Source: Nannocystales bacterium (lineage in GTDB: Bacteria; Myxococcota_A; Polyangia; Nannocystales; Nannocystaceae). Taken from it: a stretch of DNA of 64,000 bases. The stretch lies in assembly GCA_050633305.1 (NCBI GenBank), contig JBOEGF010000014.1, positions 32,001 through 96,000 on the forward strand, written 5' to 3'. The translations under genes were made by a program, and so were the position numbers. The notes below the pieces were generated by a model. That model was not told the origin of the DNA. It did not search any database and saw nothing but the letters and a program-made list of their open reading frames with translations. Shown in pieces: positions 16,256 to 51,267 of this stretch (position 1 is the first letter of the stretch; the number at the start of each line of letters is the position of its first letter).

Positions 16256-17734
16256 GTGGTGCACTTGCCTGTCCTCGATTCCGCGCCTGCCGAGGCAGCG
16301 GAGCTCGTGGAGATCCAGCTGGGGCACATGTGCAACAACCGCTGCGTCTTCTGTAGCAGCGGTCAGGCCACAGAGATGGGTCAAGCCCTCCCGATGGAGC
16401 TGGCTCCGGTCCTGGGAGCGTTGGAGCGGGCGAAGAAGCAGCGCGCCCGCAAGGTGACGTTTCTCGGGGGGGAGCCGACCTTGCAGCGAGCCTTCCTACC
16501 GGCGCTACGGCGTGCGACGGACCTTGGCTTCGAGGAGATCGAGATCTTCACCAACGGGGTGAAGGCCGCGCGTCGAAGCTTCGTGGACGAGGTGGCTGCG
16601 ATCGGCCCGTTCTCGTGGAGGTTCTCGATCCAAGGGGGAAACCAGCAGGCGCACGACGAGGCGGTGGTGAAGCCGGGGGCGTTCGTTCGGATCTGTCGGG
16701 CGATGGACAACGTCCGAGCGCGCGGCCACCGCATCACGGCAAACGCCTGCATCAACGAGCTGAGCTATCGGTCGCTGCCCGACTACGTTGCGCTCGTGAA
16801 ACGACATGGCATCGAGCAGTTGCACATCGACGTGGTGCGACCGTCTTCGGCTGGGCAACGCACGGACGCGTACCTCGGTGAGGTGATGCCACGCCATGTC
16901 GACATGGCGCCGTACTTCGATGAGATGCTCAGCGCCTTCGAGGCATGGGACCCGTCGTTTGACGTGAACGTGGGCAACTTCCCGTACTGTCTGCTGCCCA
17001 AGTGGTCCCACCGGATTCACCACGGCGGCATGGAGACGCTCACCCTCGCGGCCGATCTGGAGAACGACCTCACCGAGAAGGACAAGTACGAGGCGCAGCA
17101 CAGCGACAAGCTGCACGGGCCGCGCTGCCGCGCCTGCGCGTTTGAGAACCGGTGCTCAGGGGTGTTTGATGCATACGCTCGCATCCATGGGACGCAGGAG
17201 CTTCGACCCGTCACGGCCGCGGCCTGGGCTGCGCTCGAGCCCGTGGGTGAACGCTCGGCCTTGGTGGATGCGGCGCGTTCTGTTGCGAGCGTGCTGGGGG
17301 TCGGGGCGGAGGCCTTGCGGGTTGTGGATCCGGGGCTCCGCTTCCACGCCCGTGGGGTGGATGTGACGCTTGCACCTCGCGGACGAGCAGGACTTGCGGT
17401 CGGTCGGACCGCTGGGGTGGACATGGTCATCGACGCCGCGGGGGCGCTGAGCCAAGCCGAGGCCGAAACCTGGGTCGACGAGGCGCGAGTGGTGGTGCCG
17501 TTGGAGGTCGCGCCTCGGGCTGTGTGGATCGCCGCGTTGATGGGTGCCGAGCACGTCGCACGGGGCAGAGCTGCAATCGCGAAGCTGGCAGGCCGAGCTC
17601 GAGCGGGCAGCCGAACCGAGCCAAACTCGACCTGGCCGGGGGTGCGGATGGTCGGCCAGGACGGCGGGCCCATGAGCCTGTTGATCGCGTGGCCGGGCGC
17701 CTCAGCGCTGCTTGTGCGCGACACGGAAGCGTGA
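16256..17734 (+). CDS. Radical SAM protein, HxsC-like, with C-terminal extension
   Basis: CNNRCVFC, LGGEPTL, TNG, FPYC, C-terminal CRACAFENRCSG...YARIHGTQELRP. Confidence 0.85.
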   Translation: MVHLPVLDSAPAEAAELVEIQLGHMCNNRCVFCSSGQATEMGQALPMELAPVLGALERAKKQRARKVTFLGGEPTLQRAFLPALRRATDLGFEEIEIFTNGVKAARRSFVDEVAAIGPFSWRFSIQGGNQQAHDEAVVKPGAFVRICRAMDNVRARGHRITANACINELSYRSLPDYVALVKRHGIEQLHIDVVRPSSAGQRTDAYLGEVMPRHVDMAPYFDEMLSAFEAWDPSFDVNVGNFPYCLLPKWSHRIHHGGMETLTLAADLENDLTEKDKYEAQHSDKLHGPRCRACAFENRCSGVFDAYARIHGTQELRPVTAAAWAALEPVGERSALVDAARSVASVLGVGAEALRVVDPGLRFHARGVDVTLAPRGRAGLAVGRTAGVDMVIDAAGALSQAEAETWVDEARVVVPLEVAPRAVWIAALMGAEHVARGRAAIAKLAGRARAGSRTEPNSTWPGVRMVGQDGGPMSLLIAWPGASALLVRDTEA

Positions 17735-17857
17735 GCCCGAAAATCGTGCGGCAGTGTTCCGCGGTGCGACGCAACAAGATCGGCCGGCCACAAGGTGGAA
17801 GCCGCATACATCGACATGTCGGCCCACACGGGGCAGTGAGGCCCCCAGGGACGCCCG

Positions 17858-18538
17858 CTAGAGCTCGACCCGACGAAACAGCAACGTGGCACCGACCATC
17901 ATGCCCATCGCGACGACGACGGTGCCCGCCATGAACGGCCAGAAGTATTCCTCGAGCCCGAAGTAGTTGGGGATCATGGGGATGACTGCGAGGTTCTGAC
18001 CCGCGTAGAGGACCACGATGACGGCCACCAACGTTGATGTGGTGATCGATCCGACGAACACGCCAATGGCGGTGGAGATCGCGATCACACCCGCGGTCGA
18101 GACTAGGGAGCGGGCAAGCTCGCTCCAGGCCTCGGCAGGCAGCGGCGTCCCTCGAACGAGATCGACTGCGACCCCAGTGCCCAGGGCGATCAGGCACGCC
18201 AGCGTGACGCACGTGAAGACCGCGATGTACTTGGCCCACAGGATCGCGTCGCGGGGGAGCGGGCGGATGACGAGAAGCTGGTAGACACCGCTCTTGCGCT
18301 CACTGCCGATGTCGACTGCGACCATGATCGCAGACACCGTGCCCGCGAGGCTCGACACCAGAAGCGCCGCGAGGGCGGCCATCGAGCGCTGCGAGTCGGC
18401 GGGCTCCTTGTTCAGAAGAATCGGCAGCACGAAGATGAGCAGCGCCAGGATCGGCAGGCCAATCCACAGGATGAGCATGACCTTGGACTTGGCGAATCCA
18501 AGCAGCTCGTCTCGGGTCAGTAGCTTCAGGTTACGCAT
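17858..18538 (-). CDS. ABC-2 type transporter permease
   Basis: Multiple TM segments; ERKSGVYQLLVIRPLPRDAILWAKY motif; start MRNLKLL at 18538. Confidence 0.88.
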   Translation of the reverse strand: MRNLKLLTRDELLGFAKSKVMLILWIGLPILALLIFVLPILLNKEPADSQRSMAALAALLVSSLAGTVSAIMVAVDIGSERKSGVYQLLVIRPLPRDAILWAKYIAVFTCVTLACLIALGTGVAVDLVRGTPLPAEAWSELARSLVSTAGVIAISTAIGVFVGSITTSTLVAVIVVLYAGQNLAVIPMIPNYFGLEEYFWPFMAGTVVVAMGMMVGATLLFRRVEL

Positions 18539-19490
18539 GTCCGTGACCCTCCCCGTGGGCGTCAACGTAGCGGACGTAGAGTTCGTCCAGGTCGGGGTCG
18601 AACGGGCCGATGCTTCGGATTCGACCTCCCGCAGCGAGGGCCCCCTCGACGATGTGGTGCACCGCCGCGTCGAGGCCTTGGCCCTCTCGCAGCCGTACTC
18701 GCCAGGCTTTTCCAGTTCGCTCGCGTCCCACGAAGAGCTCCGGCGTGTCGAGAAATGCGTCGTCGTCCGGAGGCTCGGAGAACTCGACCGCAACAATCAT
18801 GGGCGCACCGAACTGTCGCTTGAGCTCGTCGAGCGTGCCGGTGGCCACCATGGAGCCCTGACGCACGACTCCAATACGGTCCGCGACGTCTTCGACATCG
18901 CTGAGAATGTGTGATGAGAAGATCACCGTGGTCCCCTCAGCCCGAACCTCGCGAATCACGTCCTTCACCACGTTGCGGCTGGCGGGATCGAGCCCCGAGA
19001 GCGGCTCGTCCAACACGAGGAGCTTGGGTCGATGCAGCATTGCCTGGACGAACCCCAGTTTTTGCTGCATCCCGCCGGAGAGCTGCTTGACCTTCTTGTG
19101 ACGCGAGTCGTTGAGTGAGAACCGCGTCAGTAGCCGGTCAAGTTCTGGGGCGATCGCCTCTCGCGTCATCCCGCTGAGCTCTCCGAGCGCGAACAATGCA
19201 CCCTCGGCGGTCCGCCAGGCGTGAAAACCAACCGCCTGTGGAAGGAAGCCGATCAGGTGGTGGGACTCGTCGCGCTGCGCCCCAACCTCGTGTCCTGCAA
19301 TGCGGAGCGTTCCCGTGAAGTCTCTGATGAGCCCGACGAGGACTCGGAGGGTTGTTGTCTTCCCTGCTCCGTTGGGGCCGATGTAGCCGAAAACCTCGCC
19401 GGGTTGCAGGGCAAACGTGATGTCGCTCAGCGCATGGACGGGCCCAAACCTCTTCCCGACGCCCTCGAACTCGACCAACGCTTCGCTCAT
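18531..19490 (-). CDS. ABC transporter ATP-binding protein
   Basis: GPNGAGKTT, LSGGMQQK, LVLDEP, SSH. Confidence 0.95.
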   Translation of the reverse strand: MSEALVEFEGVGKRFGPVHALSDITFALQPGEVFGYIGPNGAGKTTTLRVLVGLIRDFTGTLRIAGHEVGAQRDESHHLIGFLPQAVGFHAWRTAEGALFALGELSGMTREAIAPELDRLLTRFSLNDSRHKKVKQLSGGMQQKLGFVQAMLHRPKLLVLDEPLSGLDPASRNVVKDVIREVRAEGTTVIFSSHILSDVEDVADRIGVVRQGSMVATGTLDELKRQFGAPMIVAVEFSEPPDDDAFLDTPELFVGRERTGKAWRVRLREGQGLDAAVHHIVEGALAAGGRIRSIGPFDPDLDELYVRYVDAHGEGHGHA

Positions 19491-19597
19491 CGCGGTCCCC
19501 GAATACCACGGCCTACGACACGCGCTCATGAGTCTTCTGCGGATGCACGCACCCGCGGTAAGGCTGGGCCCGCTCGGAAGGCGCTACGGTCGGCAGC

Positions 19598-20647: not shown

Positions 20648-20672
20648 CACGGTCGGTTGCCGCTCGGCTCGC

Positions 20673-22109
20673 TCAAGCGTCTTCAAACAACGCGTCGAGC
20701 GTGCCCTCGATCTCTCCGAGATTCTCGTTCACACCCACCGCTCGCATGGCGGTGTTCATCACCATGGCCGGGTGCAGGTCCTGTCCGCTGAGGTCGAGGT
20801 GCTGTCCGGGGACCAGCCCGCCGGAGCGTCCGGCCAGCATCATCACGGCATTGTCGACCGAGTGGTTGGAGTCGCCGCCGCCATCGCCCGACCGCATCGG
20901 GTCGGCGGACAGGCCTTTGCCTCCCTCCATCATGTACATCGCGGCGACGTTGTCGAGCATGGTCCCTGCGCCCTCGGGGATCTCCGCGAAGCTCGCGAGC
21001 ACGCGGGCATAGACATCCACGAACCAGCGGTTGGCAGCGTCGAGCTCGGCCTGTGGGGAAGCGTGCTGCACCTCGCCGTGCAGTCCTCCCACGTGGTTCC
21101 ATTGCTCGTGGCGCATCCCGGTACCGGTGAGTGCCGAGGCCCCACCGAGGGTCATCACCCGGGTCATGTCGCACGCGAAGGCCATCTGAATGAGGTCGAC
21201 GAAGAGCGCTGCACGAGCGTCTTGGTCGGGGAGGTCTTGTCCGAGGTCGGCTGGGTCGTCGGCGGGAAGCATCGGGTCTGCACAGCCCTCGCCCGTGGGC
21301 ACCGTATCCGCGAGGAGCCGCATCTCGAGCTCCCGTACCCGGGTGAGGTGCTGGTCCATCAGCTGCCGATCGGCGGCGCCCAGCTCGTTTTGGAGCATGG
21401 AGATCTGGTCTCCTGCGTAGGATAGGCTGCTGACCCGCAACCGTCGTTCCAGCTCGGCGGTGGGGTCGGGTTCGGCGTCCGGCGGCTGGAAGTTGGTGAA
21501 CAGGCTGAGGTACGCGAGCGCGGGCGAGACTTGCGGTGTGATGCCTCGGAAGACGATCGGGTCCTCGCCCTCGAATCCCTTCGTCTCCTCGTAGCAGAGC
21601 TTGTGCCCCTCCGGCTGGGAGTCGAGCTGATAGTAGAGATACGGGTGCACGGTTTGCCGGCCGATCGCAGCGGCGACGAGCTGGTCCGGGGACAAGCCCT
21701 GAGGGCGCCACGTGGTCCCCGAGAAGCCCGAGCGCAGACCCGTCAACAGCGCGAATGTGGCCTGCCCGTGATAGTCGACATTGTAGCCGCCGGGTACGTC
21801 CAATGGCGCCACGAACAAGCCCGAGATGACGCTGACCTCGTCCTTGATCCCGTGGTCCAGCAACGGTTGCAGCACGGGGCGGACGTCGTAGTCGAACCCC
21901 GGTTGGGTCGGCGTGAGTCCTTCCTCGGTCGAGCCGCTGACCACCAGCGCGGTGGGTGACTGACTGAGGAAGTAGCGACACGGGAGCTCGCCACCGTCGG
22001 CGAGCGCCTCCCCGTGGGAGTCGAGCATCAGCTCGAGCATCGGGAGGCCGAGCACGGTGCCGGCGGCTCCCCGCAAGAAGCGTCGACGACTGGATTTCGT
22101 GCGGCTCAT
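20673..22109 (-). CDS. DUF1552 domain protein
   Basis: Tat-like SRRRFLRG...LGLPMLE, SPDQLVA, HLTRVRELE, AFACDMTRV, GTMLDN; follows a DUF1592 gene. Confidence 0.85.
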   Translation of the reverse strand: MSRTKSSRRRFLRGAAGTVLGLPMLELMLDSHGEALADGGELPCRYFLSQSPTALVVSGSTEEGLTPTQPGFDYDVRPVLQPLLDHGIKDEVSVISGLFVAPLDVPGGYNVDYHGQATFALLTGLRSGFSGTTWRPQGLSPDQLVAAAIGRQTVHPYLYYQLDSQPEGHKLCYEETKGFEGEDPIVFRGITPQVSPALAYLSLFTNFQPPDAEPDPTAELERRLRVSSLSYAGDQISMLQNELGAADRQLMDQHLTRVRELEMRLLADTVPTGEGCADPMLPADDPADLGQDLPDQDARAALFVDLIQMAFACDMTRVMTLGGASALTGTGMRHEQWNHVGGLHGEVQHASPQAELDAANRWFVDVYARVLASFAEIPEGAGTMLDNVAAMYMMEGGKGLSADPMRSGDGGGDSNHSVDNAVMMLAGRSGGLVPGQHLDLSGQDLHPAMVMNTAMRAVGVNENLGEIEGTLDALFEDA

Positions 22110-23815
22110 CAGAGTGCCTCCTTGCGATAGCGGAACGCGGGATCTGTGACCGCCGCAACCATCAGGGCGCGGAAGTCCTGTTCATCGGATTCGAATGCCT
22201 CGACCAGTCGCTCGACCACGTCGTCTCGATCGCTCGAACTGCGGGTCGCGAACCGGCTGAGTTGGCGGACGCCGCACTGGGCGGCGAGCCCCGCCTCGTC
22301 CAACGCGCTCGCAAACTCTCGGGGGCCGGAGAAGGGCTGTCCCGCCACCGTTCCTTGAGCGGCGATGTTGCACTGCGGCTTGTCTGGCTCGGACTCCCGA
22401 TACTGGCCTAGCCCGTTGTAGCGTTCGAAGCCGAAGCCCAGCGGGTCGAGCTGTACGTGGCATCCGTTGCAGGAGCTGCCAGCGTTGCTATGCACCGCGT
22501 ACGCGTCGATCTTGCACTCGTCGTCCCCGACCTCGACGCCATCATCGACATCGACGTCGGGCGGAGGGGGCGGGATCGAGATGCACAGGATCCTCTGCGC
22601 GAGCATTGAGCCGCGCCGACTGGGGAGGGTCTTGGAGCCTTGCGTCGAACTCAGCGACAGGAAGCTCCCGTGCGAGAGCAAGCCCGCCCGGCCGTCGTCT
22701 CCATAGGTCACCCAGCCCGCTTCGGAGGGGACCTCGTCCAACCCATAGTGTTCCGCGAGTGAGGGGGTTACGAACGTCTCGGAGGAGGTGAGCAGGGTCG
22801 ACCACCGGGTGCCCGAACCGGAGAGCACCCTGTCGACGAGAGCATCGCTCTCCATTCGCATGTCGGTCGCCAATGCTTCATCGGTGACCAACAGCTCGTC
22901 ATAGCGCAGCCACAACGCGTGGAATGCCCGCATCTGTTCCTCGGCGCGAGGATCATCGATCGCCGCAAGCGCGAGTTCCTCGAGTGCGTCGTCGTCGATA
23001 TCGGGGCCCCCGGCGCGCTCCAGCATCTCGACGCTGGGACCTTGGCCCCACAGGAGAAACGACATCCGGCTGACGAGTTCGTAGTTGTCCAGGAATCGAA
23101 GGCCGTCCCCGGCATCCACACCCAACTCGTGGTGGTAGGCGAAGTACGGGCTCTGCAGCAGACCCTGTGTCACCATCCGGACCGCGAACTCGTGCCCGCC
23201 TTCTTCGCCGAACTCGGTCGCGGTGGCGAGCAGGACATCGACCTCTTCGGCCGTCAGTGGCCGCCGCCAAAGTCGTAGCCCCAGCCCGTCGATCAAGTTG
23301 CGCAGGCAGTCGGGGTCCCATGCTCCCTGCGGGGTGCAGCCTGCCATCGTCTCGACGCGGGTTGTGTCCGCCGCGAACTCCCTCGCGACATCGCCGGCCA
23401 TCGACTCCAGACCCTCGACGAACACCACACTTGGGTCCTTGGAAGCTGCGTGGGTGTCGTAGGCCTCAATCTCAGCGCCCGTGAGGGGGTCGACGACGGT
23501 CCGTGGGTCCTCGGGTAGGAAGCGCTCTGCTGCGCCTTCGATCCCGAAGAGGTCCTCCAAAGTCGCGTCGATCTCGCGTCGGGAGAGTCGCGGAAGCGCG
23601 GTCGTCTCCGGGATATCCAGCGCCTCGTCGGGGGTCTCGGGAATGCCACCGCTGTCGTCCGAGCCACTGTCAGACTGGCCGTCGCTCGTGCCTTCGCCGG
23701 AATCGGTCTCACCGCTGCCTGAGGCCTCAGTCGCGCCGCTGTAGCAGCCCCCACCCAGGGCTAGCAGGGTCGCGAGCGCCGTTTTCGCCCCTCTTGTCCT
23801 CGATCGAACCCCCAT
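22109..23815 (-). CDS. DUF1592/DUF1588 family (PSCyt-type) lipoprotein
   Basis: RLSRREIDATLEDL, WRRPLT, LLQSPYF, ELVSRMSFLLW, RAGLLSHGSFL, CNGCH, DPLGFGFERY. Confidence 0.88.
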   Translation of the reverse strand: MGVRSRTRGAKTALATLLALGGGCYSGATEASGSGETDSGEGTSDGQSDSGSDDSGGIPETPDEALDIPETTALPRLSRREIDATLEDLFGIEGAAERFLPEDPRTVVDPLTGAEIEAYDTHAASKDPSVVFVEGLESMAGDVAREFAADTTRVETMAGCTPQGAWDPDCLRNLIDGLGLRLWRRPLTAEEVDVLLATATEFGEEGGHEFAVRMVTQGLLQSPYFAYHHELGVDAGDGLRFLDNYELVSRMSFLLWGQGPSVEMLERAGGPDIDDDALEELALAAIDDPRAEEQMRAFHALWLRYDELLVTDEALATDMRMESDALVDRVLSGSGTRWSTLLTSSETFVTPSLAEHYGLDEVPSEAGWVTYGDDGRAGLLSHGSFLSLSSTQGSKTLPSRRGSMLAQRILCISIPPPPPDVDVDDGVEVGDDECKIDAYAVHSNAGSSCNGCHVQLDPLGFGFERYNGLGQYRESEPDKPQCNIAAQGTVAGQPFSGPREFASALDEAGLAAQCGVRQLSRFATRSSSDRDDVVERLVEAFESDEQDFRALMVAAVTDPAFRYRKEAL

Positions 23816-26348: not shown

Positions 26349-26351
26349 GGC

Positions 26352-27128: not shown

Positions 27129-28610
27129 TCACCCGTCTTCGTGGACGAAATGCTCGCGGGGTCGAATCGTCGTCCACCGTTCGAACGCCTTGTCCGTATC
27201 CGCGTTCTTCTCGCCGAGCTTTTCGAACAGGTAGTCCTGGATGCCCTTGTGCACCATGCAGATGTTGTTGTCGGGCATGTGCCCGTAGATCGAGCCCTGC
27301 GTCTTGAGGTTGTGGGCGGGAACCGTGCCGCAGTACGGGTTGTAGGCGCACTGCTCGCAGTCTGGTTGACCGTCGAGGTTGGACGCCAAGGCCACCGCGC
27401 GCACGGTCTCGTGCCCCATCAGTTCTCGGTAGCTGCTGTCGTTGACGTGTCCGAGCTTGAGCGCGTCGTCCCCCATCGCGGCGAGCATCCGGCCTTCGTC
27501 GCAGGTGTAGATGCTTCCGTCGTAGTTGTAGGCGAGCGCTCCGATTCCGGTCCCCGATGGGCTACGCAAGTCGAGGAAGTTGGGGTCGGTACCCTGAAGG
27601 ATCTTGGTCAGGAAGATACTCGCGTAGCGTTCGAGAATCTCGACTCCCTGGGCATTGAGTTCGAGGATGTAGTCGACAGCACGCCGATAAAACTCGAGGT
27701 AGTCACTGCGCGGATACTCGATCTTCAGCCGAGTCCGTTCGGCAAACCCAAACGGGTCGACGGGACGCAGGAAGATCGTCTTGCAACCCAAGGCCACGTA
27801 GGTGTCGATGATCTCCTTGTGCTGGGCGAGCGAACTCTTGGTGAGCGTGAGCAGGGCCTCGACGTGATAGAGGGTCTTGTCGAGACCCATTTCGCCGTAG
27901 CGCTCGTTGATGCGGCGGATCCAGTACCGCGCCTTCTGAAAGGCATCGAGGGTATTGAGCTTGCGTTGCGAGTTGTGGAGCTTCTCGGGCCCGTCGATGC
28001 TCGTGCACATCTGGACCTTGTGCTCGAGCAAGAAGTCGAGCTTGTCCTCGGTCATCAGCGACATGTTGCTGACCATCGTGAACTCGAGACGCTTGCCCAC
28101 GTCTGCGTTCTTCTTCAGCGCGTACTCCACGACGTGCTTGACGACCTCGAAGTTGACCAACGGCTCACCCCCCTGGAACTCGATCGTGACGAAGGAGTTG
28201 GTGCTGGCGAGGATGATGTCGACCGCCTTCTCGGCGGTCTCCTTGGACATGTCCGTCTGGACCTGGTCCATGTTGGCGCGCGATGCATGGCAGTACAGGC
28301 ACGTCTCGTTGCAGCGCAGGGTGACGACCAGCATGTGCAGCAGGGGACCCTGGTCGAGGAAGTGCTTGCGCTCGCGCAGCGCGGCGGCTGCCTCGTGAAC
28401 CCGGTAGGTCTCGCGCAGGAAGTTGCGTTGTTCCAGCCGCGTCCACAGTTCGCTGTCGCGAGGAACGGTGCCTTCGACAAAGTCGCGGAACTCGCCAGGG
28501 GGGAGGATGAGGTGGTTGCCCTCGAAGTTGGTCAGCACCACCTTGCCCGCCACCGTGCGGTGACGGAAGTAGGCCGGGAATCCGATGTTGGGTCGCAGCG
28601 GGGCGTTCAC
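27129..28610 (-). CDS. hxsB: His-Xaa-Ser system radical SAM/SPASM maturase HxsB
   Basis: LHMLVVTLRCNETCLYCHAS, TIEFQGGEPL, CTSIDGP, IFLRPVDPFGFA, DLRSPSG, YNYDGSIYTCDEGRML, CEQCAYNPYCG, all characteristic of HxsB. Confidence 0.88.
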   Translation of the reverse strand: MNAPLRPNIGFPAYFRHRTVAGKVVLTNFEGNHLILPPGEFRDFVEGTVPRDSELWTRLEQRNFLRETYRVHEAAAALRERKHFLDQGPLLHMLVVTLRCNETCLYCHASRANMDQVQTDMSKETAEKAVDIILASTNSFVTIEFQGGEPLVNFEVVKHVVEYALKKNADVGKRLEFTMVSNMSLMTEDKLDFLLEHKVQMCTSIDGPEKLHNSQRKLNTLDAFQKARYWIRRINERYGEMGLDKTLYHVEALLTLTKSSLAQHKEIIDTYVALGCKTIFLRPVDPFGFAERTRLKIEYPRSDYLEFYRRAVDYILELNAQGVEILERYASIFLTKILQGTDPNFLDLRSPSGTGIGALAYNYDGSIYTCDEGRMLAAMGDDALKLGHVNDSSYRELMGHETVRAVALASNLDGQPDCEQCAYNPYCGTVPAHNLKTQGSIYGHMPDNNICMVHKGIQDYLFEKLGEKNADTDKAFERWTTIRPREHFVHEDG

Positions 28611-29092
28611 TTGGAGTCCTCCTCTTTCGTTTCGGTGGCAGCGGTGGGCGCCTCGGGGGCGGGGCGCCCGTGCTTCTCTTCCCAGGTCTGGGCGATCCCC
28701 AGCGGGTCGTCGAACGCGTCCTCCGAGAAGTCGAACGCCTCGAGATCCTCGAGTCCGGGGGAACTCGCAGGCACCTCGCCAAACCCAAATGCTTGGGCAA
28801 CGACGGCGTCGGTGAGCACCTGGTTGTCCGCGGCGACGCGGTGGTAGAGGTCGCTGCTCAGCAGGCGAGCCTCGAAAGCATCGGCGATCTTGGCCAGCGT
28901 GCCTTCGTCTTCGACGGCCTCTTTCGCCGAGAGGGTCACACGAATCTCGGACGCGCTGGGGCGGTCCATCAGCACGTAGCAGCGGTCGATGAAGCTGACC
29001 GCGGCGCCCTGCACGACGTGGGGAGGGTGAGAGTCGGCGGGGAGCGTGACCGAGACGCTCAGGGGGTCGAACTTTCGTTGCGGTGCGTTCAT
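28607..29092 (-). CDS. hxsD: HxsD-like accessory protein
   Basis: 161 aa coupled directly to hxsB; GAAVSFIDRCYVLMD...FEARLLSSDLYHRVAADN..L...VVAQA resembles HxsD; acidic tail DDPLGIAQTWEEKHG. Confidence 0.7.
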   Translation of the reverse strand: MNAPQRKFDPLSVSVTLPADSHPPHVVQGAAVSFIDRCYVLMDRPSASEIRVTLSAKEAVEDEGTLAKIADAFEARLLSSDLYHRVAADNQVLTDAVVAQAFGFGEVPASSPGLEDLEAFDFSEDAFDDPLGIAQTWEEKHGRPAPEAPTAATETKEEDSK

Positions 29093-31422
29093 GAGGTCTC
29101 CGAGTCTTCGGCCAGCCGCTGCGCGACGCGGCCTTGAAATCCGGTGGGCACGGATTCGTGCCGCCTGGGGTCGTCCAGAGGGCGCACGAGGTCGGACGCT
29201 TCGATGAGCCAGGGCGGCTCGGGCACGTTGTCCAGCTCGTAGAACCCGCCGCAGAAACACGCGTGCGGGCAGGTTGTGCACTGCGGCTTGCGGGTGCGTC
29301 GCTCGGCCAGGTACCCGGCCAGGTTCACGGTCTCGTTGTTGACGAACACCATGTGCCGCTCGAGCTTGAGCAGGTCGCCCTGGAGGTACTGCTCGTAGCC
29401 CGGCATGAAGCAGTACGGCAGGTTGATCACCTGGATCTTCATGCGGTCGCCATACGCGTCGATGACCGACCGCGTTTGGTCCGCAGCCGCCTGCGTATCG
29501 GGGGCGACGTAGTGGGTTGCGCGCCCGAAGGGGGTGAGAAACTGGATGTTGAGCCACTTCAGGCCCAACGACCACGCGAGCTCGGTCAGCTCGTGCTGCT
29601 TGTCGTGGTTGCCCTTGGTGATCGTGACGTTCATGCCGAGCTCCACGCTTGCAGGTCGCAGACGGACACAGTTCCGAATGCCTTGTGTGGTCTGCTCGAA
29701 CGCTTCGGCCACACCGACTTGCTGGGCGTGGGTCCTGGCGTCGTGCCCATGCACGGAGAACAGGAGGGTGGTCAGCCCGCTCTGCACGAGTTTGGACGCA
29801 TAGCCCTCGTAGGCGCACATGCGGCCGTTGGTCGTGACGTTGACCATGCGATAGCCGATCTGTCGGCTGTATCGGATGAGCCCTACGAGTTCGGGGTTGA
29901 GCGTGGGCTCGCCCCCGTCGAAGTCGACCATCTCCACGCCTTGCGCCCGGTAGCGGTCGAGTTGCTCTCGTTGTCGCGGCGGGTGCCCGTCGATCTGCGT
30001 CCGCGTACCCACCGCGCAGAACGTGCAGTGGTTGTTGCACGCGTAGGTGACGTTCATGATCAGCTTCTTCGGCCCGCTCGAGGCATCGAGCCGGCTCTGG
30101 AACGTGTCCATGAACGCGGTGAGGAGCTCCGGAGGAACGTCGCACCCGGTGATCGAGGCCGCCTTCTGAAATCGAGGGCCCCAGTCTTCGACGATCGGAA
30201 GCTTGGTATGGGCCGCAAGTTCCGTCCCCGGAAGAGGTGTTGCGAACTGGACCGCGGGGTACGCCCCGAACTCGTCCCACTGGCGCAGGGCGAACGCCAA
30301 CGTCTCGTTGATCTGCTCGGCGGTCTCCCCGGGGAGCCCGATCATGTAGTGGATCAGCAGCGAGACGCCGGCCTGGTGGGCGTGCTTGGCCGCGTCCTCG
30401 ATGTGCGAGAGGTCGAGCTTCTTTTGCACGACTTCGCGCACCACGTCGGCGCTGCCGCTCTCTGCACTCACGCTGATCGTCGTGACGCGTTCACGGAGCC
30501 GGACGAAGTCCTCGGCGCGTAGGTAGTCCGCGCGCATTCCGTTGGGAACCTCGAGCAACAAGTCCGCACTCTCGACCGCATCGAGCACGGTCTCGAAGTG
30601 GGAGCGGTGCACGTTGACCATCTCGTCGAGTACCGCGACCCGGCCGGCCCCGAGTGCGGACATCGTACCGAGCGCTTGCTGCACAGAGTGGGCGGGAAGG
30701 CGCCGCTGCGTCTTGGGTTCGTTCGGGCGGCGGTCGGGGTTGCTCGAGCAATGGATGCACGTGAACGGGCACCCGCGACTGGTGACCATTGGAAGCGTGC
30801 GCTGGGTGATCGGGAATGCCCATGCGGCGCGTCCGAGGTCCGCGACGATGCGTTCGTGAAAGCGCCAGTACGCCTGTACGTCGACCAGGCTCCAGTCCGG
30901 CGGGGGAAGCTCGGCGAGGTCGGGTTGCTCGCCCCGAATCACCCCCGACGCGGTCCCGGCCCCCAGGACCTCGGGGACCGTTCGCTCGCCTTCGTATTGA
31001 ACGTATGCGGAGAGTTCTGGGTAGGAGGCGAGCACCGAGGCGCCGGGCACTTGCACATAGTGCTGCCCCGACTGATAGAGGTCGGCGAGGATGAGCGGTC
31101 CGCGCAGTCCTTGAAGCAGCCTGGCCAGCACGTCGTCGCGGTGTGGTGGGCGGTGGAACGGGGTGTACGAGATGACGGTTGCGTCAACCTCGCTCTGGGC
31201 GGCGGACAGCGTCGCCTCGACCGATGCGCCCAGAAGCAAGCGCCCATCACTTCGACGTTGGAGCCCTGCCCCGGGAAGCGCAAACGCATCTACGAGGCTG
31301 ACCTCGTGCCCGCGCTCTCGCAGAACGGTCGCCAGCTGGACGGCCCCGAGGTCGGAGAAGTACGGGTAGTCGATGAAGTCCTCGGCCACACTGACCGGGG
31401 GAGACACGACGCGCAACCGCAC
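29089..31422 (-). CDS. Fusion: B12-binding radical SAM domain + second HxsC-like radical SAM domain
   Basis: N-terminal DLGAVQLATVLRERGHEVSLVDA (B12-binding type), TSRGCPFTCIHC, ESGS, MIGLPGET, TPLPGT; then CNNHCTFC, DGGEPTL, TTNG, LPYC, CTTCPHACFCGG. GTG start at 31422 with TATCGT 6 nt upstream. Confidence 0.88.
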   Translation of the reverse strand: MRLRVVSPPVSVAEDFIDYPYFSDLGAVQLATVLRERGHEVSLVDAFALPGAGLQRRSDGRLLLGASVEATLSAAQSEVDATVISYTPFHRPPHRDDVLARLLQGLRGPLILADLYQSGQHYVQVPGASVLASYPELSAYVQYEGERTVPEVLGAGTASGVIRGEQPDLAELPPPDWSLVDVQAYWRFHERIVADLGRAAWAFPITQRTLPMVTSRGCPFTCIHCSSNPDRRPNEPKTQRRLPAHSVQQALGTMSALGAGRVAVLDEMVNVHRSHFETVLDAVESADLLLEVPNGMRADYLRAEDFVRLRERVTTISVSAESGSADVVREVVQKKLDLSHIEDAAKHAHQAGVSLLIHYMIGLPGETAEQINETLAFALRQWDEFGAYPAVQFATPLPGTELAAHTKLPIVEDWGPRFQKAASITGCDVPPELLTAFMDTFQSRLDASSGPKKLIMNVTYACNNHCTFCAVGTRTQIDGHPPRQREQLDRYRAQGVEMVDFDGGEPTLNPELVGLIRYSRQIGYRMVNVTTNGRMCAYEGYASKLVQSGLTTLLFSVHGHDARTHAQQVGVAEAFEQTTQGIRNCVRLRPASVELGMNVTITKGNHDKQHELTELAWSLGLKWLNIQFLTPFGRATHYVAPDTQAAADQTRSVIDAYGDRMKIQVINLPYCFMPGYEQYLQGDLLKLERHMVFVNNETVNLAGYLAERRTRKPQCTTCPHACFCGGFYELDNVPEPPWLIEASDLVRPLDDPRRHESVPTGFQGRVAQRLAEDSETS

Positions 31423-36607: not shown

Positions 36608-36610
36608 CGG

Positions 36611-39184: not shown

Positions 39185-39879
39185 GAGGGGAGGATGATGA
39201 CCTCGATCGGCAGCCGCTGCCAGTGACTGTCTCGAACCTCGTCGGGCGATGACGGGGCTTCGGAAGCGTGGGAGAAGACGACCTCGACGGTCCACTGACC
39301 GGGGGGGAGATCGATGAAGCCGTCGAGTGGACCGCGGAGGCGGGCAGAGCCCGAAGCCTTCAGGTTCGCATCCACCGCTTTCGCGAACACAACCTGGCCG
39401 TCCTTGGAGGTTGCGAGCAGACTGACCGCGACGGACTGCTCCACCGAAGATGCTGCCGAGAACTTCCAGTCGATGTTGTCGTCGGGGCCACGCAACTCTA
39501 GCTGACTCGCCACGGCGTCGTGGTCTCCACGTATTGCCGCAGGACCCCCTGCAATCTCGATCGCGTTGTAGGTCGGCAATGCGTCGACGACGGGTGCGCG
39601 GACTGCGAACCAGAGCACAAGCGCGGCGGCAGCCGCCAAGGCCACGGCGGCTGCGACCCACACCGTCGAGCGGCGTTGCGGCAGCTCGGTGACGTTCGGC
39701 GGTTGTGCGGCGATCGACGGCGCCGCGGCAATTGCTGCCTTCGCATCCAGCTCGGCAAACATGTCGTCCAACAACGCGTCCCCGGCTTCACCGTCGAAGT
39801 CGTCGAGCGGGATCGGGGGGTCCTTCGCGTCCGTCTCTCGCTGATGTTGGGCGAGTGCTTCGAGGAGCTCGTCAGCCAT
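39181..39879 (-). CDS. Putative single-pass anti-sigma factor
   Basis: One TM helix (VWVAAAVALAAAAALVLWF) and an extracytoplasmic domain; coupled to the ECF sigma gene. Confidence 0.65.
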   Translation of the reverse strand: MADELLEALAQHQRETDAKDPPIPLDDFDGEAGDALLDDMFAELDAKAAIAAAPSIAAQPPNVTELPQRRSTVWVAAAVALAAAAALVLWFAVRAPVVDALPTYNAIEIAGGPAAIRGDHDAVASQLELRGPDDNIDWKFSAASSVEQSVAVSLLATSKDGQVVFAKAVDANLKASGSARLRGPLDGFIDLPPGQWTVEVVFSHASEAPSSPDEVRDSHWQRLPIEVIILPS

Positions 39880-40516
39880 GCGTTGCACCCCCACAGGCGG
39901 CGGTCTCAGCTGGCCTTGCATCCGCGCACAGGGCGGTGGCTCGGGCCAGTTTCCGCATCCTATACGACCAAGCATTGACCGCCCCCCGCGTCATGTCCAT
40001 GTGCTCGGCAACCGCATCGGGGGACATCTCCTGGACGAAAAGCAGGTCGAACAGCTCGTGGTCGCGCTCGTTCATCTTGGCGTGCATCGCAGCGAGGACC
40101 TGATCGAGTTGGTTGCGCTGCTCGAGCCGCTTGGCAAGGTCCGCGTCGTCGGCAGTGTCGATATCGGCCGGATCGAGGGGGGCATCGGCCCAAGGATTGC
40201 CGCGCCCACCGCTGAGCATTCGCGGAATGCGCCGCCGGGCGATGAGTTGCACGAAGCTCTCGAGGCTGCGGCCGCGCTGCGGGTCCCACCGGCGGAGCTG
40301 ATTGCCATCGTTCTCGAACAAGCCCAACAGGATATCGTGGACGAGGTCCTTGACCTCTTGCCGGGGGTCCCGGCCCTCGGCGGCGGCAAGCCGGGAGACC
40401 GCGAACGATGCTTCGCGAGCGACGGCCTGCATGAGTCGCCGCCCAAGCTCCCGACGCGCCGCGGCGTCCCCCGCCAGAGCGCGGGCTACGAGCTCGACAT
40501 CGTCCAGATCGGACAC
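39872..40516 (-). CDS. ECF RNA polymerase sigma factor
   Basis: DVELVARALAGD, KDLVHDILLGLF, RWDPQRG, region 4 MSPDAVAEHMDMTRGAVNAWSYR. Confidence 0.85.
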   Translation of the reverse strand: MSDLDDVELVARALAGDAAARRELGRRLMQAVAREASFAVSRLAAAEGRDPRQEVKDLVHDILLGLFENDGNQLRRWDPQRGRSLESFVQLIARRRIPRMLSGGRGNPWADAPLDPADIDTADDADLAKRLEQRNQLDQVLAAMHAKMNERDHELFDLLFVQEMSPDAVAEHMDMTRGAVNAWSYRMRKLARATALCADARPAETAACGGATHG

Positions 40517-41544: not shown

Positions 41545-41637
41545 CTTCGAAGCTCCTGCTCGGCCCCTTCCTTGTAGCAGAACCGCACCAGCGCGACATC
41601 AGCGCGATGCGGCCCGGTGTGGGCTATCCTGGAAGAC

Positions 41638-43386
41638 GTGAGTCAGGCCGATGCCAAGATCGTGGAGCACGAAGAGGCGGCCCACGAGAAGCGCAACTGG
41701 GTTCGGCTGACGTACGACTGCAACGACCGCTGCATCTTCTGCCTCGACTCACACACGCACGATGGGACGAACCGCGACCGCGAAGAAGTTCGGGCGCAGA
41801 TCCTCGACGGGCGGCGCAAGGGCGCGCAGCGGCTGATCCTCTCGGGGGGAGAGCCGACGATCCACCCGGACTTCGTCAAGTTCGTGAAGCTCGGGGCCCT
41901 GGCCGGTTACCGCAAAGTGCAAACCGTCACGAACGGCCGGATGTTCGCGTACCCCGACTTCCTCAAGCGGAGCCTGGACGCTGGCCTCTCGGAGATCACG
42001 TTTTCGATCCACGGTCCCAACGCCCGGGTTCACGACGCGTTGGTCGGAACGAAGGGGGCATTCGAGCAAGAGGTCACGGGCCTGAAGCACGCGATGGCGG
42101 ATGGTCGGCCGATCATCAACATCGATGTCTGCGTGAACAAGGGCAACGTGAAGGTGCTGCCCGACATCCTGGAGACGTTCGTCGGCATGGGCGTCAAGGA
42201 GTACGACCTGCTCCACGTGATCCCGTTCGGACGCGCGTACACCGAGGGCAAGGAAACGCTCTTCTACGACCTTGAAGAGATGCGCCCGTTTCTCCTCGAG
42301 GCGTTCGAATATTCGAAGCGTCCGGACATCCACATCTGGCTCAACCGCTTTCCCGTTCCTCACCTCGAGGGCTACGAGTCGCTCATCCAGGACCCGTACA
42401 AGCTCGGTGATGAGGTGCGCGGTCGCAAGGAAGAGTATGCGCAGCTGCTCGAGCGAGGCATCCCGTTGGACTGCCGAGAGCCGGACCGGTGTCGCCACTG
42501 TTACCTCGAGCCGCTGTGCGACCGGCTCGATGAGGTTCGGGAAACGGTCGCGGAGCAGACCTACGCCCGGGTGCGTCTCGAGCCCGGGTTCGAGGCGTCG
42601 ATGCAGCCGGTCTACGGCGGAGACCCGGCGACCAAGAAGCGCACAGAGGAGCGCAGTCAGATCGCTCAGGAGGCGCAGGCGGGCAACGTTCAAGCTCGGC
42701 ATCGTCTTCAGGTGATCGGGGCGGGCAAGTCGGTGCAGTACCCCAGCGTGGCGCACCACGTTGCCGCGGCCAAGACGGTGTGGATCGTTGCACCGACGCT
42801 GGCGGACGCACAGCGGGCGCTGAAGGGGTTGGAGGTCGCGGCGGTGGAACTCGAACTTGCGGACCCCACCGGCATCGAGCCAACCCTCGATGGAGTTGCG
42901 GTGACCCGCGTGCTGGTCAAGACCACCGAGCACGCGCAAGCGCTGCTCGAGATGGAGGCGCCCTTCGAGGTTGCGATCACGTTGTCGAAGGCCACAGCAC
43001 CGTGGCTCCTGTCGCTGGATGCGGCGCCAGATCGCCTGTGCATCGTGCAACCCAGCCACGATCGGCTCACAACCGCGGCGTCCGAAGATGTTGAGCTGGA
43101 TGCCTTCTTCGAGGCGTTCGAGCTCCCCGTTCCGGTCGAGGGTGTTCCGGCCTGCATCAGCGCAGAGCGAGCCCGCGCGACACCATCCACCCTGGACGCA
43201 GCGATGATGACGCCGCAGGGCGAACTCGAGATCTTCCGTTTCGCAAGGCGGTACGTGCAGTCCGACTACCGGGTGAAATCGCTGCGCTGCAAGACATGCA
43301 AACACGTCGGGTCGTGCGAAGGGCTGCATGTCAACCACGTGCGGGCGTTCGGATTCGCAGCGTTGCAACCGGTGACCGACGGATGA
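41638..43386 (+). CDS. Radical SAM protein, HxsC-like, with large internal insertion
   Basis: WVRLTYDCNDRCIFC, LSGGEPTIH, TNGRMF, FSIHG, PFGRA, internal CREPDRCRHCYLEPLC, terminal CKTCKHVGSCEG...AFGFAALQP; GTG at 41638 has TATCCT 7 nt upstream. Confidence 0.88.
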   Translation: MSQADAKIVEHEEAAHEKRNWVRLTYDCNDRCIFCLDSHTHDGTNRDREEVRAQILDGRRKGAQRLILSGGEPTIHPDFVKFVKLGALAGYRKVQTVTNGRMFAYPDFLKRSLDAGLSEITFSIHGPNARVHDALVGTKGAFEQEVTGLKHAMADGRPIINIDVCVNKGNVKVLPDILETFVGMGVKEYDLLHVIPFGRAYTEGKETLFYDLEEMRPFLLEAFEYSKRPDIHIWLNRFPVPHLEGYESLIQDPYKLGDEVRGRKEEYAQLLERGIPLDCREPDRCRHCYLEPLCDRLDEVRETVAEQTYARVRLEPGFEASMQPVYGGDPATKKRTEERSQIAQEAQAGNVQARHRLQVIGAGKSVQYPSVAHHVAAAKTVWIVAPTLADAQRALKGLEVAAVELELADPTGIEPTLDGVAVTRVLVKTTEHAQALLEMEAPFEVAITLSKATAPWLLSLDAAPDRLCIVQPSHDRLTTAASEDVELDAFFEAFELPVPVEGVPACISAERARATPSTLDAAMMTPQGELEIFRFARRYVQSDYRVKSLRCKTCKHVGSCEGLHVNHVRAFGFAALQPVTDG

Positions 43387-44480
43387 AGTGGCCCGATGCC
43401 GAAGGGCTGGTGCTGGATGACCTCACGGTCCCGAGGCCCGGCTCGAGCACGTTGCGTGGCGTATGGTCCAGAGCGCTCCGTCGAACGGTCCTCGATTTGC
43501 TTTCGCTCGAGGCCCCGCCGACCTGCCGCACGTGGGGCGTGAGCCGGGCCGCCGTCGCAGGGTTGGCAAAGTCGAACCCCGGGGCGTTGTTCAGCGTGTT
43601 GCGTCAGCCCGGTGTTGGAACGCGGATCCGGTGCCTCCGAGATCCGTCGCGCGATGACATCGATCGCGTTGCCGTCTGTGAATCCCTGCAGGCGGTGCTG
43701 GCACACGAGTTGGGAGCGTCGTGGACGGGCCCGGTCGTTCTCGATGCCACGTTTACCTCGTGGCGCGAGCGAGGCGAGGTCCGCGGCGGTCGGGTGATGA
43801 CCCAAGACGAGCACGGCCTACTGTTCGCGCCATTGGGTGCAGGCGTGATGTTGTGCCGGGCGGACGACAGCCCGCTCGCCATGCACGAGGCGCACCCGGA
43901 CAAGGATGGCAACCGCACCTCGCTCGGGGGGCAAGCGCAGTCACAATGGGTCGAGAGCCTGCGAGCCGCACTGGAGCTGATCGGAGTCGGACTCCCGGAC
44001 TTACACGCAGAGATCGAGCTCGCCCTGCATCAGATCGTCCCGGTCGGCTACGAGGAGTCCCGCCATCTCTCCGCATCGTTTCAGGAAAACCTCGGCACGG
44101 CGTACATGACGCTGCACCCGCAGCGGATGACGATGGTCGAGGCGATCGTGCACGAGTTCTCCCACAACAAGCTCAACGCCCTGCTCGAAATCGATCCGGT
44201 GCTTCACAACGCTTTCGAGCCGCTGTTCTCATCTCCAGTACGGCCGGATCCGCGGCCACTGCACGGCGTCCTTCTTGCGGTACACGCGTTCACGGCGGTG
44301 GAGTCGCTGTATCGCTCACTTCGCCGCCAGGGCCACCGTGTCAGCGAGGGACAAGGTTTTGAGCAACGCCTGAGAACGATCGCGGAAGGGAATCGCGAGG
44401 GGCTCGAAACGCTCGAAAACGCCGAGCCGACAGCGGCGGGGAAGTCGTTGTTGTCCGAGCTTCGCCGCCTCGCGGTGTAG
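43383..44480 (+). CDS. HExxH-motif peptide-modification protein (aKG-HExxH type)
   Basis: HLSAS...GTAY, EAIVHEFSHNKLNAL, SPVRPDPRPLHGVLLAVHAF; ATGA overlap with the radical SAM gene. Confidence 0.85.
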   Translation: MKWPDAEGLVLDDLTVPRPGSSTLRGVWSRALRRTVLDLLSLEAPPTCRTWGVSRAAVAGLAKSNPGALFSVLRQPGVGTRIRCLRDPSRDDIDRVAVCESLQAVLAHELGASWTGPVVLDATFTSWRERGEVRGGRVMTQDEHGLLFAPLGAGVMLCRADDSPLAMHEAHPDKDGNRTSLGGQAQSQWVESLRAALELIGVGLPDLHAEIELALHQIVPVGYEESRHLSASFQENLGTAYMTLHPQRMTMVEAIVHEFSHNKLNALLEIDPVLHNAFEPLFSSPVRPDPRPLHGVLLAVHAFTAVESLYRSLRRQGHRVSEGQGFEQRLRTIAEGNREGLETLENAEPTAAGKSLLSELRRLAV

Positions 44481-44591
44481 CGTCCGGCGCCACCGGATAC
44501 GCGCGGAGTCGCCCAAAACCGGCTGGCAGAGCACCTTGCGGCTGTATGCCGGTTCAGGCATCACAAGGGGCGGGGTATTGGGTTTGTTGTT

Positions 44592-44618
44592 CGCGGAGGT
44601 CTACGCCGCGGCTTTTTT
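44592..44618 (+). terminator. Possible intrinsic terminator
   Basis: CGCGG-9 nt-CCGCG stem followed by GCTTTTTT; the stem is short. Confidence 0.35.
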
Positions 44619-44666
44619 CGTCGTGTTCACGCGCCCTGCCATCCTGTGTGCTCGAGGGCACCAGCC

Positions 44667-46118: not shown

Positions 46119-46140
46119 GCACACGTAGGGGGGATTGACG

Positions 46141-48507: not shown

Positions 48508-48673
48508 GGCTTGCGCTTCTCGCGCCGAAAAAAGGGGCGAACCAGGGTTAAACCGTTTGCGGCAAGCGAGGCTCTTAGGGGGGACCGCCATGAAAGCCTG
48601 CGCGTTTGCTTCCCACAGTCTTGTCACAACAACCCTTTCCGAGATGCCCGTGCGTCGTGGAGAAGGGGCGTAG

Positions 48674-50059: not shown

Positions 50060-50106
50060 TTGGGCGTCGCGATGCCCTGCCGGGTCAGTACCAGCCTTGT
50101 CGTGGT

Positions 50107-51267
50107 CTACGCGTCCTCGCCCTGCTCGCGCTCCATCGCGATCCCGCTTGCCTCGGTCTTGCGAGCCTCAGCCTTGCGCTTCGCTACATACAGCCGTTCT
50201 CCGCGATCCGTCACCCGACCGACTGGGATGAGAGACGCGTCGCGTTGCGGCGGTGCAGTGTCCATTCCTCGCTCCGCCCGTGTGAACCGCTTCTTCCACT
50301 GTGGGAACGTCAGCGGCTTCTGACTCGGGTCCGTGCCATCGCCCAGAACGTGCTCGACCACGGGTTGGAGCGGAACGAACACGGGGTGGAGTTCGGCGGG
50401 GTCATACCCATCGCCGCGGTCGAACAACCCGCCGCAGATCGATCGCAGCGAACATGCATCGCAGGCCTCGGTGTAGATGTGTCCCCAGGCGGTCTGCCGT
50501 ACGGTCTGCTTGTCGTCCAGGAAGTGAACGATGCGTTCTTCTCCTTTGACGATCTTGCGGGTCTCGGTGCTGGCCCACGCGAAGTCGGTCATGTAGCACA
50601 GCGGAACCTTCTCCACGCGGAAGGTCCGGCCGCTGCGATGCAGGAGCTTCATCGCTCGGTGCAGCGAGAGCTCAAACTCGGCCAGCCGGGGGGTGAATGT
50701 GGCCTGGTTGACCTCGGCACGACCCATCGAGGGGTCGAGGTTGTTCCAGACGAAGTGCCGGATGTGCGGGTGCTGCTTCACCAACACGCGGATGTTCTCG
50801 TGTAGGTGGTCGGCGTTGAGCTTGTTGATGACGCAGTTGATGTTGACTTCGATTCCGAATCGAGCCGCGTTGTCAATGGCGGCGTAGGCTTTGGACAGGG
50901 TGTCTTCGGTGCCGCGGAGCCTGGCCTCGATCTCGGGTCGAACCGAGTAGACCGACACGTGGACCAGCCGAACGCCCGCCTCGGCCAGCGCCTGGGCGAA
51001 GTCGGGTTGTGAGAGCCGCGAGCCGTTGGTGATGAGCCGAACATGCAGTCCTTGCTCGCTTGCGTAGGCGGCGATCTTGGGGAGCTCGGGGTGCAGCGTT
51101 GGTTCGCCCCCGGTGAGGATGATGCCGAAGTATCCGCGCTCGACAAAGTCGTCGACGAGCACGCGCATGCTGTCGAAGTCGTGGGTGTACGGCGTCGTCG
51201 GGTTCGAGCAGAAGCCGCAGACGTGGTTGCAGTGCCGGACGACCTGCAGGTAGCCGATGTTGGCCAG
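50107..51267 (-). CDS. Radical SAM protein, HxsC-like; apparent CTG start
   Basis: The frame is open 33 codons upstream of the ATG at 51168 and contains the essential CNHVCGFC motif; then LTGGEPTLH, TNG, VPLC, CDACSLRSICGG...AELHP. Confidence 0.85.
   Translation of the reverse strand: MANIGYLQVVRHCNHVCGFCSNPTTPYTHDFDSMRVLVDDFVERGYFGIILTGGEPTLHPELPKIAAYASEQGLHVRLITNGSRLSQPDFAQALAEAGVRLVHVSVYSVRPEIEARLRGTEDTLSKAYAAIDNAARFGIEVNINCVINKLNADHLHENIRVLVKQHPHIRHFVWNNLDPSMGRAEVNQATFTPRLAEFELSLHRAMKLLHRSGRTFRVEKVPLCYMTDFAWASTETRKIVKGEERIVHFLDDKQTVRQTAWGHIYTEACDACSLRSICGGLFDRGDGYDPAELHPVFVPLQPVVEHVLGDGTDPSQKPLTFPQWKKRFTRAERGMDTAPPQRDASLIPVGRVTDRGERLYVAKRKAEARKTEASGIAMEREQGEDA

Follow-up and report, generated by a model that had tools for sequence, protein, structure and literature searches.

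The window analysed here, a stretch of 64,000 nucleotides (G000:C14:32001-96000) from the genome of a Nannocystales bacterium (G000; 11.0 Mb, 92% complete, 65% GC; by its named homologues a member of the Nannocystaceae, Myxococcota), carries seven genes for putative peptide-modifying proteins at four separate loci. On balance, we read these loci as four fragments of an HxsA4-type maturation system, a much enlarged relative of the His-Xaa-Ser (HXS) system, that would modify a His-Gly-Ser (HGS) repeat peptide bound for the cell envelope. An HXS system was reportedly predicted by Haft and Basu in 2011. Its canonical form is described by Li et al. (2026, PMC13128918) as an anti-phage system of HxsD, HxsB, HxsC and HxsA (TIGR03976-TIGR03979). 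The labels W1-W7, X1, Y1, Y8, Y9, V and LP were coined for the present analysis, and model scores are given in bits next to the NCBIfam cut-offs.

Precursor peptides and candidate enzymes

A first-pass annotation of the window had reported that it holds no His-Xaa-Ser precursor. This is correct for the window, whose six frames contain no HxSHxS, but not for the genome: searching the 205,263 six-frame open reading frames of G000 for (HxS)3 returned two hits only, in tandem on contig C18. Both exceed the HxsA4 cut-off (NF038313, 55), the first (G000:C18:686453-686776, 107 amino acids) at 99.6 and the second (G000:C18:686887-687189, 100 amino acids) at 64.4. Each consists of a leader (LPxF..L..REIS..A), a core of HCS(HGS)14 or HCS(HGS)10, that is 15 or 11 HxS units, and a terminal tryptophan; the core has neither arginine nor lysine, there is no peptidoglycan-binding domain, and synonymous codons differ among the repeats. 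Across relatives, cores with anywhere between 9 and 50 repeats occur, the upper value being reached in G187 and G132 (L099:7585-8220, L143, L132), and the HxsA4 repeat is masked with N in several assemblies. The canonical HxsA model TIGR03979 (cut-off 121.65) finds two weak matches in G000, at 32.8 and 25.1, confined to the C-terminal end of the model. These data make the two HGS-repeat precursors on C18 very probably the substrates. A collagen triple helix for (GSH)n was considered and dropped, as Pfam Collagen scores of 31.4 and 25.9 (cut-off 27.2) are given by any Gly-X-Y repeat. For the HxsA4 leader, a predicted complex with HxsB, HxsD and the HxsD-like protein scored 0.02, which is no answer, and is not used as evidence.

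All seven open reading frames and six radical S-adenosylmethionine (SAM) domains first listed for the window are present. HxsB (27129..28610, minus strand), a radical SAM/SPASM maturase and core component encoded once in G000, scores 570.6 with TIGR03978 (cut-off 370), and its profile best matches SPASM enzymes of peptides that are made by ribosomes and modified after translation (RiPPs; PDB 5wgg, 8vpo and ChlB). W6 (43383..44480, plus strand), by family an alpha-ketoglutarate HExxH peptide hydroxylase (HEFSH), scores 95 with TIGR04267 (cut-off 40), carries a PxRxDxRP motif besides HExxH, and matches ChlH (8s5f; E 1.3e-6), to which its HEFSH and PVRPDPRP align. HxsD (28607..29092, minus strand), here in the long myxobacterial form whose acidic C-terminal tail is conserved, reaches 31.4 against the TIGR03976 cut-off of 50, although its homologues carry the name HxsD in the source annotation. 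Its structural model is a small alpha/beta fold (beta-beta-alpha-beta-beta-alpha) with generic ACT/RPB11-like matches (top Z 7.8, root-mean-square deviation (rmsd) 2.5, 80 residues aligned); no PqqD-type chain, the RiPP recognition element fold, is among the fold matches listed.

HxsC-like radical SAM domains are found in W1 (16256..17734, plus strand; an accessory component with a C-terminal extension), in the C-half of W2 (29089..31422, minus strand), in W5 (41638..43386, plus strand; a widespread component with a degenerate second half) and in W7 (50107..51267, minus strand; a core component and the best marker of the system). The terminal CxxC-x5-C-x-G motifs by which these four had been grouped as HxsC-like paralogues are all there, that of W5 lying at residue 551 on the degenerate second half, not on the catalytic domain; yet none of the four passes the model for HxsC (TIGR03977; best 101.7, cut-off 267.9) or HxsC4 (NF038332; best 113, cut-off 500). 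The N-half of W2 is class-B/AprD4-like, AprD4 being its best solved-structure match, and its former "B12" label is uncertain (PF02310 16.4 against 32.1, with no match in five orthologues). The six CxxxCxxC motifs read CNNRCVFC in W1, CPFTCIHC and CNNHCTFC in the N- and C-halves of W2, CNETCLYC in HxsB, CNDRCIFC in W5 and CNHVCGFC in W7. Four-base overlaps join W2 to hxsD, hxsD to hxsB, and W5 to the HExxH gene. W7 has to start at a CTG (51265-51267) because an in-frame TAG sits just upstream; its relatives start with TTG, GTG or ATG at the equivalent position. Matches of the system's enzymes to PADLOC viperin models were set aside as generic radical-SAM similarity.

The rest of the system lies on contigs C18 and C23. 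On C18 the two precursors close an operon that begins with X1 (C18:683916-685709), an HxsC-like domain joined to a class I methyltransferase, and continues with a second HxsD (G000:C18:685706-686170; TIGR03976 19.9 against 50) and a gene for an HxsD-like protein of 79 amino acids (NF038315 70.5, cut-off 41), which is homologous to HxsD at a profile probability of 88%. A third locus (C18:604-617 kb) contains Y1, with two HxsC-like domains, Y9, Y8, and a V that is truncated and without CxxxCxxC. Ten intact radical-SAM domains in G000 can be assigned to the system. In several genera V (G000:C18:615081-615716; L038, L054, L068, L090, L102) no longer has the CxxxCxxC half but retains its C-terminal cysteine motif, and it may be a pseudo-enzyme adaptor. 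None of the NCBIfam equivalog hits names W1, W2, W5, W7, Y8 or the LP domain.

Some further observations concern these enzymes. A motif (R/K/H)xLP(V/I)(V/L), a loose pattern counted without a background control, occurs in linkers or ends of W1 (7/14), W2 (8/10), V (8/14), Y9 (4/7) and W5 (5/14), for example at the W1 N-terminus (window 16256) and in the W2 and W5 linkers (L036, L038, L072, L073), and is absent from HxsB (0/30) and HxsD; it resembles the LPxF of the precursor leader and may be a docking motif. Between Y1 and Y8/Y9 lie genes for a SPASM enzyme, an NAD-dependent epimerase and a membrane glycosyltransferase-like protein (G000:C18:605926-614035; L004, L005). Elsewhere G000 encodes one further HExxH protein, a weak one, along with several unrelated radical SAM/SPASM proteins (C10:599974-600453, C24:108508-121428, C23:241644, C6:197198, C14:165345, C12:92764).

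Linkage and co-occurrence across the Myxococcota

In relatives, most system genes are held in single clusters of 15-20 kb. One 20-kb cluster (G058) holds W2, W5, Y1, Y9, LP, HExxH, V, Y8, X1, HxsD, HxsD-like, HxsB, HxsA4 and HxsC4, with ten radical-SAM domains, and similar blocks in G039, G021, G008, G047, G050 and G062 place most window genes beside HxsD, HxsB and the precursor. HxsB lies directly upstream of HxsA4 in many relatives, and W1 adjoins HxsB in G003, W7 in G038 and G039. The window arrangement is not due to chance, since linkage of the same four loci recurs in the genus mates G001 and G003 and, for three of these loci, in G004; the insertions between the pieces differ among these genomes. 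We counted genes in 26 cluster regions, using BLAST thresholds of our own setting: HxsD was found in 25, HxsA4 in 24, HxsB in 23, W7 in 18, W5, HExxH and X1 in 16 each, W2 in 7 and W1 in none, and because the regions had been picked for holding system genes these counts are biased upward, which, like the missing W1, weighs against our reading. A prepilin peptidase, identified by eye, lies near one myxobacterial cluster map only (G235).

Distribution was examined in an order-level sample of 72 genomes and a phylum-level sample of 251 Myxococcota genomes. In the order, HxsB was found in 59 genomes, W7 in 58, HExxH in 47 and W1 in 28, all of the last in system-positive genera, a genome being called system-positive if it has HxsA4 or W7; HxsA4 was detected in 64 at E<=1e-5 (51 above cut-off) and HxsC4 in 48 (46 above the NF038332 cut-off). 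Ten genomes from six genera are without HxsB, W7, W1, HExxH and HxsC4 together, three of them showing weak, sub-cut-off HxsA4, and in 11 of 17 genera nearly every genome has the system, mostly as a single copy. HxsC4 was not found in G000 (best 107.7-113 against 500), in its six genus mates (0/7 genomes of the genus) or in genera g2 and g3.

Across the phylum, 85 genomes have HxsA4, 89 have W7, 83 have both and 160 have neither, so that 91/251 are system-positive; these genomes are kin and not independent, and misses are possible because scoring covered the best candidates per genome only. HExxH was found in 52 genomes, of which 51 are system-positive and one belongs to the other 160. The N-half of W2 occurs in 13 genomes, all system-positive (0/160 among the others), and covers all 11 system-positive genomes of the class to which G000 belongs. 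In a tree of 193 domains, W1, W2C, W5, W7, X1, Y1N, Y1C, Y9 and HxsC4 form separate clades with support of 0.95-1.0, V forms a clade with weaker support, and the W5 clade spans many families; pairwise identity among the HxsC-like paralogues is 21-33%. These enzymes are old paralogues, probably with distinct functions. The proposal that the window holds fragments of one expanded Hxs-type system is supported by the single clusters of relatives and by co-occurrence across the phylum.

Proposed export, surface anchoring and pathway

Y8 (G000:C18:615581-616102, 173 amino acids), which belongs to no Pfam or NCBIfam family, has a putative twin-arginine (Tat) signal, with an N-terminal RR, a hydrophobic stretch and an AxA-like site. 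The RR is invariant in 17/17 aligned sequences and lies within the first 45 amino acids in 142 of the 150 best further hits; the Y8 profile matches 1,031 clusters, and TatC is present. Y8 was found in 57 of the 91 system-positive genomes as compared to 2 of the 160 others, and for one of these exceptions (G234) other system genes lie in the surrounding region.

The precursor leaders are complementary to this distribution. Leaders were parsed in 80 genomes (79 of the 85 with HxsA4, plus G296), leaving out G085, G139, G197, G300, G303 and G308 for masked bases or want of an anchor. The median hydropathy of the best 12-residue leader segment is 0.82 in the 50 Y8-positive genomes and 1.73 in the 30 Y8-negative ones, with 2 of 1,500 pairs out of order, and a leader motif FLxxEEGK(I/V/L)(T/A)(R/K)x occurs in 0/50 of the former and 28/30 of the latter. 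As a caution, its FLxSEEG form may also resemble Flp prepilin leaders. The precursor of G074 has a textbook twin-arginine signal, TRRNFL. At the level of families, 15 are Y8-positive, 13 Y8-negative and none mixed.

A second candidate for the cell surface is the LP domain, a Cys-containing domain of about 175 amino acids that ends lipoproteins inside both types of system cluster. It is present in 86/91 system-positive and 4/160 other genomes, is C-terminal in 152/152 proteins, and is accompanied by a loose lipobox pattern in 85 of 118 long carriers. G000 has copies at C23:67483-68874 and C18:596491-597489; other genomes have up to 6, in open frames of up to about 6,200 amino acids, and several LP proteins contain MopE-type putative metal-binding repeats. 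An identity with PPC or collagen-binding domains was considered and stayed weak: all five PDB hits are collagenase binding domains, at E 0.66-1.8, and the LP profile matches six PPC domains of its own genome with a probability of 4%.

From these elements we propose the following pathway. In the cytoplasm, HxsB, aided by HxsD and the HxsD-like protein, and eight HxsC-like domains would act on the HGS repeats, a multi-enzyme modification that we think probable. The likely chemistry would be three-residue His-to-Ser crosslinks or related oxidations, together with methylation by the X1 methyltransferase fusion and perhaps also by W2. Among three-residue cyclophane RiPPs, His-crosslinking enzymes (HtkB and HaaB) are described (PMC11499958). 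The HExxH enzyme could hydroxylate His at the beta position or cleave the leader oxidatively; since it tracks Y8 (50 of the 52 HExxH genomes are Y8-positive), its task may be to tailor His, or to take off the leader in cases where a signal-peptidase site is no longer left, and it is dispensable, as none of the 11 genomes of genus g17 was found to have it. ChlH is reported to act on pre-formed cyclophanes, hydroxylating their His and Asp, and PflC/PosC in addition to break backbones next to small residues (PMC12636437). The leader of the G000 lineage would have lost the hydrophobic export segment found in other lineages, and the folded product would leave the cell with Y8 as a Tat hitchhiker, a step for which we see the arguments as evenly poised. 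Tat is reported to export an untagged partner together with one that is tagged (PMC10924467); a rigidified peptide fits such a route. Outside the cytoplasm, the product would be a constitutive envelope component, a rigid and probably metal-binding poly-histidine array, which lipoproteins and large surface proteins that end in the LP domain would hold or recognise.

Several observations pull against this pathway. Ten radical-SAM domains acting on a uniform repeat represent more chemistry than simple crosslinking needs, and for the LP domain we found neither a family or fold assignment nor a Pfam PPC hit. PF10518 (TAT_signal) does not hit Y8 of G000 and hits two of four relatives' Y8 proteins below cut-off; the leader motif was drawn up after looking at the leader data, and most Y8-negative segments have RK, KK or RG instead of RR. 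On an HxsB tree of 25 rows, two changes suffice to explain the Y8-positive/negative label, and the Y8/leader split thus reflects few evolutionary events. Moreover, Y8 may serve the V/HExxH module, since it shares 50/52 genomes with HExxH and adjoins V and HExxH in many clusters. Y8 could then be a separate exported client or partner of that module and the leader complementarity a coincidence of two lineages, an explanation to which we give serious but lesser weight. The two changes on the HxsB tree and the 50 shared genomes speak for it, as does the likeness of the Y8 fold to parts of Myxococcota radical SAM proteins (Atlas structures, TM 0.61-0.64). Against it, the Y8-positive family f18 retains a recognisable leader segment disrupted by charge (FLSSEEGAISEKQEERVSTFL vs FLSSEEGKITRKQAAQISTFL), and G062 carries Y8 while no HExxH orthologue was found there.

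A general fold search with Y8 gave no clear match (top Z 5.2, rmsd 5.4, 96 residues aligned). G000 also encodes a Y8 paralogue of 109 amino acids without an evident signal peptide (G000:C18:614158-614487; L005:2158-2487; profile probability 79%, E 1.6e-5). Extra radical-SAM genes by the G047 and G044 clusters (L044:18408-19643, L045:4766-13580, L075:16240-20000) have weakly Y8-like terminal segments (pairwise E 0.002-0.7), which agrees with the Atlas structure matches. A Y8-type domain as the tail of W1 was discarded (profile probability 0.3%, and Atlas structures without a usable match).

Known relatives, possible function and flanking genes

The myxobacterial system resembles canonical HXS in having an HxsB above cut-off, an HxsD, HxsC-like radical SAM domains, an HxS-repeat substrate and signs of export. 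By contrast, no window protein passes the HxsC model and no HxsA above cut-off is found in G000; the substrate is an (HGS)11-15 peptide of about 100 amino acids with no peptidoglycan-binding domain and no basic core; radical-SAM domains number ten rather than two; HExxH, a methyltransferase, Y8 and LP are added; and the G000 genes are dispersed over at least three contigs, C14, C18 and C23, whereas canonical HXS is a compact four-gene D-B-C-A operon. Judged by its sequences, the system would work like HXS yet falls outside canonical membership. The sections of the HXS paper used here place 99.7% of HXS in Pseudomonadota and mention neither Myxococcota nor HxsA4 (PMC13128918).

Compared by model names and scores, two of the three markers of the NCBIfam HxsA4 subtype (NF038313, NF038332, NF038315) are found in G000, HxsA4 and HxsD-like, and HxsC4 is not. 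The first-pass annotation had allowed that a precursor elsewhere might make this a known subtype: the precursor does lie elsewhere, but the gene set is not the HxsA4/HxsC4/HxsD-like trio, as it lacks HxsC4 and has about ten further components without a name. With cyclophane RiPPs that have an HExxH enzyme (ChlB/ChlH and PflC/PosC, as described in PMC12636437), the system shares aromatic-x-x repeats, a ChlB-matching SPASM enzyme and a ChlH-matching HExxH protein, and it differs from them in its free-standing HExxH enzyme and its many extra short HxsC-type enzymes. No paper on the myxobacterial HxsA4 branch was found in the literature searched, which largely excludes subscription journals.

HXS chemistry had also been taken as uncharacterised, a view overtaken by the 2026 study, which assigns to canonical HXS both a modification and an activity against phages. 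As reported there, both radical-SAM enzymes and HxsD are required for HxsA processing in E. coli, HxsA is periplasmic in a signal-dependent manner, and a change of +8 Da, described as +C/-4H, maps to SHRSS (PMC13128918). By our computation this mass equals CH2 minus 6H, so that one reading would be one SAM carbon and three two-hydrogen oxidations. A short, uniform and defined substrate for about ten unnamed radical-SAM enzymes opens new peptide chemistry to direct testing, the +8 Da of E. coli HxsA included. About a third of the sampled Myxococcota (91/251) keep the pathway, often so scattered that mining based on clusters would overlook it; the complementarity of Y8 and leader bears on how HxsA proteins are exported, and the LP domain suggests a role at the envelope that goes beyond defence against phages.

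For the function itself we lean tentatively toward the constitutive envelope role, since the system is vertically kept and not carried as a mobile defence cassette, tolerates scattering, has no basic core, and has few defence neighbours. The alternatives are not mutually exclusive with it or with each other. The same maturation and export could serve phage defence, with the exported His array blocking phage DNA entry in the periplasm and the LP lipoprotein or Y8 standing in for the peptidoglycan-binding anchor. HxsB above the canonical cut-off and an export signal conserved in cis or in trans agree with this, as does the sole tested Hxs system, which blocks DNA entry and needs every HxS repeat; however, the same source ascribes DNA binding to basic repeats (PMC13128918), and the myxobacterial core lacks Arg and Lys as well as a peptidoglycan-binding domain. 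A system that is near-universal, mostly single-copy and survives fragmentation also fits defence poorly, and PADLOC at 1e-25 hits 4 of 136 flanking genes, of which three look like a generic kinase, helicase and AAA protein, with no two together. We regard the defence reading as rather unlikely.

Less likely again is a diffusible RiPP freed by leader removal, either a His-rich metallophore or a predation antibiotic, with the lipoprotein as its receptor or immunity factor. The leader and core layout is classic, each core holds 9-50 His, the tailoring enzymes are typical of RiPPs, and the MopE-type repeats of several LP proteins would suit metal binding; against this, the cluster maps show no conserved exporter or protease, repeat number varies freely, and composition is invariant across the phylum, unlike that of a diversifying antibiotic. 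Action on a different, non-HxS substrate, as the first-pass annotation had proposed, is very improbable. That the precursor sits on another contig, that the genus of G000 lacks HxsC4, and that other targets are conceivable for some paralogues, W1 or the double enzyme Y1 for instance, would favour it, but G000 has two HxsA4 genes above cut-off and a single HxsB, HxsA4 and W7 co-occur in 83/91 genomes, and the precursor follows HxsB directly in most of the relatives examined.

An extension of the envelope reading, which we consider a long shot, is a surface-assembly pathway in which about ten radical-SAM domains and a hydroxylase turn (Gly-Ser-His)n, a Gly-X-Y repeat, into a rigid envelope polymer or tag that is exported by a separate twin-arginine carrier and docked by LP proteins. 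If true, the twin-arginine carrier would have split off from the precursor's own signal, and the anti-phage HXS of E. coli would be a reduced offshoot.

The genes around the fragments complete the window. An S9 peptidase with a lipobox-like start (window 13881-16169) adjoins W1 in G000, G001 and G003, and an S9 protease is reported to process another radical-SAM RiPP (PMC12957482); the peptidase (14034-16169) was rejected as a system member, being next to W1 within the genus only, as was an ABC pair (17858-19490) that lies beside W1 in G000 alone among the regions fetched. Between the fragments lie a DUF1592-type gene pair (20673-23815) and, at 34622-40516, an S8 protease, a CHAT-domain protein and two genes, probably sigma/anti-sigma, that were recognised by eye. 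Outside the system, window positions 341-12208 form a mobile-element-like block with tyrosine recombinases (1434-2534 and 7905-9095), a DnaC-like ATPase and DNA methyltransferases (3777-4775 and 10931-12208).

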